A stretch of DNA of 64,000 nt from a virus (Duplodnaviria; Caudoviricetes): IMG/VR virus record IMGVR_UViG_3300020050_005097, positions 12,308 to 76,307 of that record; one strand, given 5' to 3'. A model generated the notes under the pieces. It had not been told where the DNA came from. It was given only the letters and a program-made list of their open reading frames with translations, and did not search any database. The position numbers and the translations under genes are program-made. This document shows positions 17,580-20,762 of this stretch, piece by piece (positions within the stretch are counted from its first letter, which is position 1; each line of letters opens with the position of its first letter).

Positions 17580-18548
17580 AGAAAGCGCCTCGGACTATCC
17601 GATATTTAACGCAGGGCGTCTACATGAGTTCTCTTTGTGATACATGCAATAAGAGTCCTACCTCCTATCAGGTTTCGGGAGCGCCTCCAATTGGAGGAAC
17701 CACATGGTGTAGGAACCAGTCTCCCTATACCACCCCTGCTAAAAATACAAACAGCGCCGGAGCAGAGCCAAAATCTACTAACCCAATTCGAGGAAAGGAT
17801 TCCTGTCATGAGGTGCATTCGATTCTGACTCTGCTCCGACACTAGTGTTTGTGGGGGAACGGCCCGGTAGCTCCGTTCATTACATGAGAGTGTACCCGAC
17901 ACACATAGTGCGCCTGTTCCGGGTAAAAGGGATTGCTCTCAAAACCCTTGTTTCTGAAGCAGTACTTTATGCCGACGTTCGAACTAACTTCGAATCCGCA
18001 GATAATCTGTCAAATATAAGACCGGTAGCTGCACGTTCTTATACTTACAGATCGACGCCCACACAAATGGCTCTTTCGAGGTTCAGAAACGATTCCAACC
18101 GCGTGCTTCTGCATTTAGCCACGGGTTAGAATAGAGCGATGAGCGGGTACCAGAGTTCTCCTATACTCAGCTGGTATAAGTCTCCCTCTGGCCCCATCTC
18201 TCACCATCACTCGCTGATCACGCTTCCAACATGATCACTAGGTTTCCGACTGGAAGTTGTCGGTCGCCTCGGGTCCCTTACGGGTAACGCCACGAGCTGG
18301 TTTTTTGTTTAACCCGCAGATTGCCGTACACACCCGGACCCCAGAAGGACCGCGGGGGCGAGTCATCCTCGCTCAATCTGTCGTTGCCGTCTTTTCCTTG
18401 ACGTTCTACTTAGTGGGGGCCGGTGTGGTATCCATCCGGCATTACATGAGGCTAGCCTCGACCACTTGCTCGAAGTCCACGACGGTATGCGTGACCTCAA
18501 AACCCACTAACGCTCTGAGCTTAAAGCCTCTTTAGCCTCGCTCAGACG
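17580..18548 (-). ncRNA. candidate giant (~950-nt) structured non-coding RNA
   Basis: no SD-led ORF; more than 15 nested 5-9 bp inverted repeats over whole length; strand inferred from context. Confidence 0.6.
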
Positions 18549-18553
18549 AGGTA

Positions 18554-18862
18554 CTACCGTACTACTGCTGCCGACACTGTGTCGTTGTGGCTTGGAGGAT
18601 GAGCCGGCGAGTTCATGTATGTCATCGTGTAGTCCGACGTGAACAACCCACGCTTCTCGCCTTCAGCATGAAACACCTCCACATCTGCCTTTGTGTCGAA
18701 CGGGCCGTACGTGACCCACTCTTTGTCGTGAGGCCATGCGCTTCCGGTTCGCTGGTTGGTGGTCATTACGATTTGCATGACTCTCCTTTGTTTGGTTACT
18801 TGGCCTTTTCCTTGGTGAAATCGAAGGACGATGGATCCGCAGACCCATGCGACAACCTTCAT
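18554..18862 (-). CDS. hypothetical protein with internal second start at 18778
   Basis: identical 20-bp SD-containing repeat precedes both ATGs. Confidence 0.65.
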   Translation of the reverse strand: MKVVAWVCGSIVLRFHQGKGQVTKQRRVMQIVMTTNQRTGSAWPHDKEWVTYGPFDTKADVEVFHAEGEKRGLFTSDYTMTYMNSPAHPPSHNDTVSAAVVR

Positions 18863-18880
18863 TGTTTCTCCTTTGTTTGG

Positions 18881-19033
18881 TTACTTCTTCTTTGAATACC
18901 GGTGATAGAGCATACCGCCATCCGGGTTTTCCTCGCTGACGATGATGTCTTTTCGGAAAGCCGAATAGCCAACGGTTATTGCACCGATGACCCCTTTGAT
19001 GATGTTGATCGGACGAATTCGAAACAGTTTCAT
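18881..19033 (-). CDS. 50-aa micro-protein
   Basis: hand-translated; ATGA coupling. Confidence 0.55.
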   Translation of the reverse strand: MKLFRIRPINIIKGVIGAITVGYSAFRKDIIVSEENPDGGMLYHRYSKKK

Positions 19034-19215
19034 CCGTCGATCCTGTTCAGCTGACTCGCGTAGACCACGACCTCGAAAACGTGCAGCGGGTCGAAGTTAT
19101 TTCCGTCCGAAGATTCGTTATAGCTAGTCGCCATTTCGGAAGCATACGTCTTGGACACGAACGGAATACTACAAATTGCGACGTCTGCGGTCTTTCCTAC
19201 GAAATACAACTTCAT
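19030..19215 (-). CDS. hypothetical protein
   Basis: follows start-associated motif. Confidence 0.65.
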   Translation of the reverse strand: MKLYFVGKTADVAICSIPFVSKTYASEMATSYNESSDGNNFDPLHVFEVVVYASQLNRIDG

Positions 19216-19240
19216 TGCTTTCTCCTTTGTTAGGTGAATT

Positions 19241-19516
19241 GCTTGCGAAATTCCGGTGGCCTGACTTATGACCAGACTGTACTCGAACGGATCTCATGAG
19301 CAGTATGGACTCGTATAGAGACTGTGGTAGCACCGGAAACCAAGTGGGACGCCGGGCTTGGTCGTTTAATCCATCTAGATAAGCGCGATGCTTTTCAATG
19401 CTAGATGTGATCCCACAAATATAACTGGTGAATGCGCCTATGTAGTGTCATCACCCAAGCCGACTCGCGGCTTCCGAATGGCGGTCGCATTCCTTACCGA
19501 CACTTGACCAGTTAGA
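19241..19516 (-). ncRNA. candidate ~275-nt structured RNA
   Basis: stems 19251-58/19331-38, 19344-49/19411-16, 19372-78/19401-07, 19423-29/19508-14. Confidence 0.55.
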
Positions 19517-20101
19517 TCAACTCTGCATTGCTGATCGAACCGTGGCCTCGTTGATACCGAAGTGTTCGGCGATCTCACGGTTGTTCTTCCCGGCGAGGTG
19601 CATGGCGGTTGCCTCCTGAGCGAACTCTCGGTAAGCTCGATCAGCAGCGTTGTCGTACTCGCCCGGGTTGTCGAGCATGTCCACAACGGTCGGATCGAGA
19701 CCTTCCGAGGCGTTGGACGAGACGGCGTAGTACCGAGCGCCCTCCAACGGCTGCTTCTCGTTGATCCACTCGCTTCGGAGATGACCCTCATTCTTCAAGG
19801 CAGTCTGCGCAGCGTTCCACAACCCAGAGGTCAAGACCAGTCCGAATCGCTTCTCGATCTCCTCGATGATCTCCTGCTTGTTGAGACCAGGCGTGTCTCG
19901 GACCACCGCCAGGATCGCTTCTCGGCGCTTCTTCGTGTCCTCGGGGGTCGAGTAGGCACGCTTGTCCGTCGACCGATTTCCCTTGGGCTTCTTCTCGGTA
20001 CTCGACACCTTCGCGTCTCCGAGAATCAGGTACTGCTTGCCATCGATGACCACGATCTTCTCAGGGACGATCTCGATCAACTTCAGGTTCAACTGCGTCA
20101 T
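19517..20101 (-). CDS. winged-helix protein with extra C-terminal LuxR-type HTH
   Basis: RREAILAVVRDTPGLNKQEI...; NNREIAEHFGINEATV; strongly GC3-biased. Confidence 0.8.
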   Translation of the reverse strand: MTQLNLKLIEIVPEKIVVIDGKQYLILGDAKVSSTEKKPKGNRSTDKRAYSTPEDTKKRREAILAVVRDTPGLNKQEIIEEIEKRFGLVLTSGLWNAAQTALKNEGHLRSEWINEKQPLEGARYYAVSSNASEGLDPTVVDMLDNPGEYDNAADRAYREFAQEATAMHLAGKNNREIAEHFGINEATVRSAMQS

Positions 20102-20176
20102 TACTTGTCTCCTTTGGTAGGTTAACTTACTTGCGAAATTCCGGCGGACTGATGACCAGACGGTGCTCGATCTTCG

Positions 20177-20626
20177 CTATACCCGTGATCCGAACGGCCC
20201 GAGTGCTTGGAACTCGATCTCCTCTTCCTCGGCGAGAAGTCGCTCCAGTTCGGGGTCGCCCGGCGAAACGAAGTAGTACCGGTTACCGGAGAACTTGTCG
20301 GTCCCGTTGATCCGCTCCGCTCTGATCTTGCCTTCCTTCTGGAGCTTGGTCTGAGCAGCGTTCCAAAAGCTTTCGGCGAGGTTGACTCCGTGCTCACGCT
20401 CCATGGCTTCGATCACACCGGTCTTCTTGATACCTGGGTTTCGTCGGATGATGTCCAGGATCTTGGCTCGTCGATCTGTGGCTTCCGCGTCCGCAGTGAT
20501 GCTTCGACCACCATTTGGCTTCGTGTTCTTGATCGTGACATCGTCGAGGATCAGGTACTGCTTTCCGTTGACGACGATGATCTTCTCAGGGACGATCTCG
20601 ATCAACTTCAGGTTCAACTGCGTCAT
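20177..20626 (-). CDS. winged-helix protein, paralog of 19517-20101
   Basis: shared MTQLNLKLIEIVPEKI N-terminus and WNAAQT helix. Confidence 0.8.
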   Translation of the reverse strand: MTQLNLKLIEIVPEKIIVVNGKQYLILDDVTIKNTKPNGGRSITADAEATDRRAKILDIIRRNPGIKKTGVIEAMEREHGVNLAESFWNAAQTKLQKEGKIRAERINGTDKFSGNRYYFVSPGDPELERLLAEEEEIEFQALGPFGSRV

Positions 20627-20654
20627 TACTTGTCTCCTTTGGTAGGTTATTGAC

Positions 20655-20762
20655 ACGTAGTGGGTTAGGTGGTGCACCACCAATTCCGCAAGCTCCACAG
20701 ACGGGGGAACATCTGCTTCAGCACCATTATTGGAACTGTCCCCACTACCGCTCTGAGCCTAA
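20655..20762 (-). ncRNA. candidate ~105-nt structured RNA homologous to 5' domain of the giant RNA
   Basis: 20/22 identity with 18503-18524; gtagtggg/cccactac closing stem. Confidence 0.55.

Follow-up and report, generated by a model that had tools for sequence, protein, structure and literature searches.

Although pistol ribozymes, a class of self-cleaving RNAs recognized since 2015, are understood at the atomic level, what they do in nature remains an open question (PMC6765202). Here we analyze a 64,000-nt stretch of a Caudoviricetes genome (positions 12,308 to 76,307 of the 76.3-kb IMG/VR record IMGVR_UViG_3300020050_005097, 49% GC), hereafter the window, in which two copies of a repeated RNA element lie on the minus strand at 18404-18551 (copy 1) and 20651-20790 (copy 2). 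Both copies share with the described pistol class (RF02679; env25, 5K7C; PMC4604425, PMC6154101) the P1 stem, a 6-bp pseudoknot joining the P1 loop to the P2-P3 junction, an AAA linker, a purine at position 32, the G33-C41 pair, G40, G42, a 2-nt G-U junction and a short candidate P2; like members of the class, they lie between phage genes. We consider it likely that the two repeats are minus-strand pistol ribozymes lying in a long phage operon, which would cut themselves at a G|U step and free the mRNA of a 149-amino-acid (aa) gene and a structured RNA.

The assignment rests on cmscan searches of the minus strand with the Rfam pistol model (RF02679, gathering cut-off 34.5 bits), which matched copy 1 at 18493-18551 with 41.8 bits, above the cut-off, and copy 2 at 20722-20790; the full extent given above for copy 1 adds to this match its P3 and cut site, as read from the sequence. 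The active site of the env25 pistol is composed of purine-32, G33-C41, G40, G42 and the G-U junction (PMC6154101), and the cmscan alignment places all of these residues in both copies, with active sites reading UUA-A-G...G-C-G in copy 1 and UUA-G-G...G-C-G in copy 2. They fall within a core that spans 18511-18524 in copy 1 (UUAA-G-CUCAGA-GCG, providing A32, G33, the 3′ strand of the pseudoknot and G40 C41 G42) and 20749-20762 in copy 2 (UUAG-G-CUCAGA-GCG, providing G32, G33, the pseudoknot strand and G40 C41 G42). The P1 hairpins, CCUCG[UCUGAG]CGAGG in copy 1 (18536-18551) and CGUCG[UCUGAG]CGACG in copy 2, present the same UCUGAG loop, which pairs in both copies with CUCAGA (18514-18519 in copy 1) to make up the 6-bp pseudoknot, and the linkers, CUAAAGA in copy 1 and UUAAAGCA in copy 2, both contain AAA.

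The same residues had been singled out in a first-pass annotation of the window, which described two 22-mers (18503-18524 and 20741-20762) as the constant handle of a guide or scaffold RNA recognized by a protein or nuclease. The 22-mers are indeed identical at 20/22 positions, with no third match at ≤3 mismatches and 0/100 matches in dinucleotide shuffles, and the similarity between copies is wider than had been noted, extending over ~47 nt (18503-18549 versus 20741-20788; families D4 and D10). Their first difference is, as claimed, compensated in the partner strand: plus-strand partners are present at 18410-18417 (ttagtggg) and 20657-20664 (gtagtggg), yielding a U-A pair in copy 1 and a G-C pair in copy 2. 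Their other difference, A versus G at the RNA level, corresponds to pistol position 32, where either purine is allowed (PMC6154101). The so-called handle consists of UUA-R-G-CUCAGA-GCG and the 5′ strand of P3, read as their reverse complement. The observation is therefore confirmed and its interpretation partly supported, being right on the anatomy (an RNA read from the minus strand, in which the conserved 5′ core GCUCAGAGCG is followed by a UAGUGGG/CCCACUA helix enclosing a variable interior) and wrong on the function. Since the handle coincides with the active site of the pistol self-cleaving ribozyme, a guide scaffold recognized by a protein or nuclease is left unsupported; a pistol RNA would need neither for its action.

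The compensated helix of the repeats is the predicted pistol stem P3, whose true partner strands lie 76-85 nt apart. It pairs UUAGUGGG (18503-18510) with CCCACUAA (18410-18417) in copy 1 and GUAGUGGG (20741-20748) with CCCACUAC (20657-20664) in copy 2, comprising 8 bp in both copies, followed by GU. With the 5′ strand held fixed, an 8-bp partner followed by GU arose by chance within 450 nt in 28/1000 shuffles for copy 1 and 13/1000 for copy 2. Because of the intervening insert, cmscan mis-assigned P3 in both copies, forcing a false short stem; in copy 1 the pairing it chose involves an internal GGUC (18493-18496) that can compete for the 5′ strand of P2. The interiors, of 85 nt in copy 1 (18418-18502, with a predicted multi-hairpin fold) and 76 nt in copy 2 (20665-20740), differ in sequence as initially described, aligning no better than shuffled sequences. 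The accompanying statement that both fold stands only weakly beyond chance, with z-scores for the whole elements of -2.5 (copy 1) and -1.1 (copy 2). A pistol devoid of its P3 loop is still active in vitro as a two-strand construct (PMC4604425), and the presumed cargo can therefore be understood as the expansion of a dispensable loop, compatible with catalysis. ARAGORN finds no tRNA inside or beside either copy, and by this search neither insert is tRNA-embedded or tRNA-derived. The P3 insert of a single locus (L033:1530-1740, minus strand) contains a T-arm like that of a tRNA (GGGGUUCGAUUCCCAC) with an 11-bp closing stem, and ARAGORN likewise reports no tRNA there.

The G-U junction following P3 is exactly 2 nt long in both copies and leads into the 3′ strand of P2, setting the predicted cuts at G18409|U18408 and G20656|U20655. 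In copy 1, the junction and the P2 3′ strand AGAA occupy 18404-18409, facing GGCU at 18525-18528 in a register taken from family members; in copy 2 they occupy 20651-20656, where GUCA faces GGAC (20763-20766) with 3/4 pairs. The ribozymes would fold co-transcriptionally within the operon transcript, each cutting itself without the assistance of any protein, through a structure made up of P1, the 6-bp pseudoknot, the short P2 and a P3 with a loop expanded into a multi-hairpin domain of 76-85 nt. Cleavage in vivo would presumably take place at the two G|U steps just past P3. The upstream fragment would keep almost the whole ribozyme, with the bulky P3 domain at its 3′ end, and would terminate in a 2′,3′-cyclic phosphate, and the downstream fragment would start with a 5′-OH. 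Cutting by copy 2 would thus generate a separate mRNA for the 149-aa gene with a 29-nt leader, and cutting by copy 1 would release a conserved structured RNA bearing a hairpin with an AAGGA loop (H1) 5 nt into its sequence.

The region into which copy 1 would cut runs from U18408 to the start codon of the next gene (ATG at 17540) and comprises ~870 nt on the minus strand (17540-18408) that are poor in open reading frames (ORFs) and strongly folding, with a minimum free energy of -338.8 kcal/mol versus -282 ± 8.6 kcal/mol for shuffled sequences (z = -6.6). No credible ORF was found in it, the ORFs it does contain having no PHROG match, and Rfam returned no match; over 17100-22000, Rfam searches at E ≤ 10 recovered the two pistols, one chance IMES-4 match and nothing else. 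A blastn search of 17500-18420 against 50,697 phage records was also negative. Models for the large phage RNAs GOLLD and ROOL matched nowhere in the 76-kb genome at E ≤ 10; for ROOL the negative is weak, because its control was silent as well.

Related RNAs nonetheless recur behind pistols in other viral contigs, where they define a family, here designated type A, with a distinct layout: H1, which begins 3-5 nt past the cut and carries a AAGGAUAA-like loop, is followed by another hairpin (H2) and an A-rich tract (AAACAAAAAACC); then come a closing stem that covaries, the sequence GAC(A/G)G and a long terminal hairpin. The H1 loop contains a Shine-Dalgarno-like AAGGA. Searching viral contigs with the RNA motif alone identified 15 loci, 15/15 of which have a pistol directly upstream, and nhmmer identified 28 type-A members, all of them again with a pistol upstream. 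A covariance model built without the window expanded the family to 29 members, including the window itself at 18291-18408 (minus strand), where the match begins exactly at U18408; the pistol-then-RNA order is kept in 29/29 members. The matched 5′ module of the window contains H1 (CGUC[AAGGAAAA]GACG, 18388-18403, 5 nt after the copy-1 cut), an expanded second domain, the A-rich tract AAACAAAAAACC (18299-18310) and the start of the closing stem, and the window RNA carries ~500 nt of extra folded RNA beyond the type-A core. The helices of the family covary with a score of 0.457, whereas shuffles give 0.150 (0/500) and slid controls 0.03-0.11. In the model-fitted alignment, 87% of cells pair and all five pairs of H2 have changed on both sides; an alignment fitted to a model leans towards the structure of that model, and we therefore take the covariation as supportive, not final.

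Many of the contigs encoding type-A RNAs are relatives of the window's phage and carry the element downstream of the same DNA-polymerase block. No conserved gene follows it, the downstream proteins of 19 members being mutually unrelated, so the type-A RNA is not the leader of one gene family. The family was not found in Rfam 15 or in the searchable literature, and its model has no match in Gordonia phage GTE7 or in the 44 kb of Rhodococcus phage ReqiPepy6 that were searched. In one set of sites, a type-A RNA follows 16/34 pistols with a long P3 and 0/44 with a short one; across the family, three members have short P3 stems. The H2 loops of the family are rich in palindromes. Self-complementary hexamers (UGAUCA, UAGCUA, UUGCAA, AUCGAU) occur in 8/25 distinct loops (null mean 0.68, maximum 4 in 2000 trials), at loci that include L011, L067, L073, L050, L123, L019, L023 and L079, with UGAUCA in L067 and L123, and palindromes of at least 4 nt occur in 20/25 (null mean 6.5, maximum 13). 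The palindromes lie off the symmetry axis of the stem and the stems contain G-U pairs, which favours self-association of the RNA through kissing loops over a palindrome acting at the DNA level. In the RNA of the window no palindromic loop can be assigned, since a three-way domain there takes the place of the second hairpin.

Two further observations were made among these loci. A second downstream motif, unlike type A, lies just past the pistol cut at L108, L044, L094, L078, L034, L109 and L097, where a hairpin with a UUUAAAUGGA-like loop precedes AYACAAAAGYCCCUG; pistols may therefore head more than one RNA family. In the relative L038 (3344-4053, minus strand), an Rfam match to transfer-messenger RNA (87.7 bits) lies on the same strand, ~700 nt upstream of a pistol with its type-A RNA.

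Environmental RNA data bear indirectly on the product of copy 1. We compared positions 17200-21200 with the RNA contigs of four metatranscriptome runs from up to four studies, which came from activated sludge, sediment and a source given only as "metagenome". The stretch 17803-18396, assigned to the minus strand from the family, is found as whole RNA contigs of 483-594 nt with 95-99+% identity. Two of these contigs reach 18395/18396, 12 nt from U18408, and none enters the ribozyme or the flanking genes; the only other cover in the region is a 39-nt partial match (19471-19509) to a contig that is otherwise unlike it. The RNA recovered from these libraries has no handle and begins just past the predicted cut of copy 1. 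The contigs are compatible with a stable RNA that owes its 5′ end to copy 1. The 3′ end of the RNA may lie at a long hairpin of ~20 bp (roughly 17755-17838) with a U-rich stretch behind it.

Taken together, these results lead us to propose, at somewhat less than even confidence, that the pistol serves as the built-in 5′-end maker of an undescribed phage RNA family, characterized by the 5′-terminal AAGGA hairpin, a second hairpin with a self-complementary hexamer in its loop (e.g. UGAUCA, UAGCUA, AGCGCU) that would suit kissing-loop dimers, the A-rich tract, and the closing stem with its long terminal hairpin. The member encoded in the window would have grown to at least 600 nt and would accumulate as a discrete, stable species in sludge communities, its flanking genes being absent from the contigs of the same RNA runs.

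The pistol core itself is widespread. The same core pattern appears in 108 stretches of IMG/VR contigs, and the search for the handle that the first-pass annotation had suggested finds it at more than 90 distinct sites in viral contigs, so that its absence elsewhere cannot be invoked. Over the 94 distinct sites included in a census of P3 lengths, the distribution is bimodal, with 44 short (14-33 nt), 34 long (48-218 nt) and 16 ambiguous cases. The 34 long P3s are well supported, being followed by (G/A)U and then by the complement of P2, and Rfam recognizes the cores of all long-P3 examples tested. Many of these long-P3 pistols start P3 with a GUAGUGGG-like sequence and are therefore attributed to one lineage. 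What appears to be new here is the long-P3 form of the pistol and its coupling to the type-A RNA family.

Canonical pistols were also encountered. Gordonia phage GTE7 harbours one in the unannotated gap between Orf83 and Orf82 (JN035618.1, 63988-64056, minus strand, equivalent to L001:2976-3044; 48 bits). GTE7 was considered as a relative of the window's phage and rejected, as the two share no protein at E ≤ 1e-5 and the 50 nt they have in common correspond to the ribozyme core alone. In two AT-rich viral contigs (L084 and L085), three to four canonical pistols follow one another at spacings of 340-1140 nt, each ~25 nt ahead of a small gene's start codon; the gene array is thus punctuated by ribozymes.

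Several results weigh against the readings proposed here. Copy 2 scores 32.0 bits with RF02679, below the 34.5-bit cut-off, because the model is unable to span the P3 insert. P2 is very weak in copy 1, where GGCU/AGAA provides two Watson-Crick pairs and two G.A oppositions, and this is the weakest point of that copy; several relatives likewise have a short or mismatched P2, stacked on H1. The match of the window to the type-A model is modest (19.6 bits, E 0.045) and, with filters off, splits into two weak pieces because H2 is replaced by the larger three-way domain. The RNA contigs are assembled products that define neither strand nor exact ends and that stop 12 nt short of the cut, and an assembly break is possible. 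In the four runs, no RNA contigs cover copy 2, its gene, the genes encoding helix-turn-helix (HTH) proteins or other ORFs, a result that is uninformative on expression. Finally, the nearest cultured relatives (ReqiPepy6, ReqiPoco6 and the Gordonia phages Pherobrine and AlainaMarie) have no pistol at E ≤ 1.

Some of these points lend themselves to the view that the elements are decayed relics, with cores kept by descent, at least one copy no longer cutting and the RNA boundaries set by host RNases or a promoter. The two Watson-Crick pairs of the copy-1 P2, the sub-threshold score of copy 2 and the position of the contig ends, 12 nt from the predicted cut and not on it, would all agree with decay. 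We nevertheless judge it unlikely, since neither copy has lost any catalytic position, the pseudoknot or the 2-nt GU junction, and the P3 pair is compensated between them. A scan of 16500-22500 for promoters and terminators detected nothing near either copy and no sigma-70-like promoter, and the preservation of the pistol-then-RNA order throughout the family argues for selection on a working unit.

The variable interiors invite two other explanations. A guide or scaffold RNA, in which a protein or nuclease recognizes a constant handle and the loop acts as variable cargo or guide, would account for a conserved core and closing helix enclosing variable interiors, as well as for the recurrence of variable inserts at the same place in many viral contigs; yet the handle agrees residue for residue with the pistol active site, the RNA that accumulates is devoid of it, and the genes beside the two copies encode small ORFs, HTH paralogues and a Fic protein, with no nuclease or Cas-like gene among them. 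The interiors do not show the complementarity to the phage's own genome that guides might be expected to have, a BLAST search of the P3 inserts against both strands of the 76-kb genome producing self matches and chance 9-16-mers alone, and we find this explanation extremely improbable. A regulated pistol, in which the P3 domains of 76-85 nt would gate cleavage by responding to a ligand, a protein or the way the downstream RNA folds, finds some encouragement in the association of long P3s with the downstream RNA (16/34 versus 0/44) and in the ability of GGUC in copy 1 to compete for the P2 strand. The inserts are unrelated even between the two copies, however, their shapes vary among relatives with no conserved aptamer-like core visible, and the three family members with a short P3 do without such a domain, making allosteric control very unlikely in our view. 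We therefore retain the reading of the two repeats as self-cutting pistols within an operon.

The genomic setting of both copies is compatible with such an operon, all genes around them being on the minus strand. Copy 1 begins 3 nt after the TAG stop codon (18554-18556) of a 74-aa ORF, and the P1 and linker of copy 2 extend over the UAA stop and the 7 codons before it in a 73-aa ORF (20771-20992). The 149-aa gene (20177-20626, minus strand) has a ribosome-binding site (RBS) and an ATG at 20626, 29 nt after the copy-2 cut. Its product is a paralogue of a 194-aa protein (19517-20101) with a C-terminal HTH resembling LuxR/sigma-70 region 4, which the 149-aa copy lacks, and no relatives of the 149-aa protein were found among the viral contigs. 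The primase-polymerase of the phage is 62% identical in aa sequence to those of Rhodococcus phages ReqiPepy6 and ReqiPoco6 and of Gordonia phages, and phage sequence was found in wastewater and sludge runs; this kinship and this occurrence point to an actinobacterial sludge host.

Additional features were observed in the surroundings of the two copies. A 105-nt duplication with 93% identity (20020-20124 and 20545-20649) encompasses the leader, the RBS and the first 26 codons of the 149-aa and 194-aa genes. A repeat of ~60 nt on the minus strand (19226-19286 and 20114-20170; 77-88% identical; ...UCGAGYACMGUCUGGUCAUNAGUC...CCGGAAUUUCGCAAG...) is located just upstream of the RBSs of two genes, with starts at 19215 and 20101. 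A 300-nt ORF-free gap (19216-19516, minus strand) separates the 194-aa gene from the next small gene and has neither an Rfam match nor a pistol core. Two genes upstream of copy 2, a Fic/DOC-family protein (21390-21947, minus strand) displays the HPFKDGNGR motif (Pfam PF02661, E 6e-9). The phage also encodes tRNA-Leu(UAA) and tRNA-Lys(UUU) at 6158-6242 and 10933-11007 (minus strand), which decode codons ending in A/U, as fits a 49%-GC phage in a host of higher GC content.

Set against known systems, the two elements depart from the pistol class in a P3 insert of 76-85 nt, which exceeds the span of the Rfam model, in a P2 of just 2-3 pairs, in a likely actinobacterial host (the class is described mainly from Firmicutes) and in the fusion of copy 1 to a conserved RNA. 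The GTE7 pistol resembles them in its core (88% identity over 50 nt), in starting right after a stop codon and in its wastewater sample, and differs in having a canonical P3 (~13 bp with a 13-nt loop), a perfect 4-bp P2 and no type-A RNA after it. The fate proposed for the released RNA has a parallel in 5′ mRNA stabilizers of Bacillus, such as the STAB-SD element of cryIIIA and the processed leader of phage SP82, in which a new 5′ end near a purine tract resembling a Shine-Dalgarno sequence, or near a hairpin, protects the RNA, with processing carried out by RNase III or dispensed with altogether. By analogy, the 5′-OH and the 5′-terminal hairpin H1 may shield the RNA released by copy 1 from 5′-end-dependent decay; the processing agent would here be a ribozyme that leaves a 5′-OH, and the stabilizing role is one we infer.

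Theta ribozymes, which resemble the hepatitis delta virus ribozyme and lie beside tRNAs of gut phages (PMC10879173), are likewise small self-cleaving ribozymes of phages whose cut becomes the end of a non-coding RNA. They belong to another class and trim the 3′ trailers of tRNAs, whereas the pistol described here would form the 5′ end of a structured RNA that is not a tRNA. GOLLD and ROOL (RF02032, RF03087; 10.1101/2024.12.08.627333) are comparable as long, strongly folded non-coding RNAs of phages, and palindromic hairpin loops in relatives hint at self-association as a further similarity; the type-A RNA differs from them in its core of ~230-350 nt, its layout, its invariable position after a pistol and the lack of a match to their models. 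The comparison indicates that standard annotation under-scores a common natural form of the ribozyme, namely pistols with P3 domains of 48-218 nt, and draws attention to an RNA family, missing from Rfam 15, that invariably accompanies the ribozyme. For a class whose structure is far better understood than its use, the locus offers two concrete candidate roles side by side, the trimming of an mRNA to a 29-nt leader and the production of the 5′ end of a conserved RNA, and the coupling of copy 1 to that RNA hints at a natural job for pistol ribozymes.

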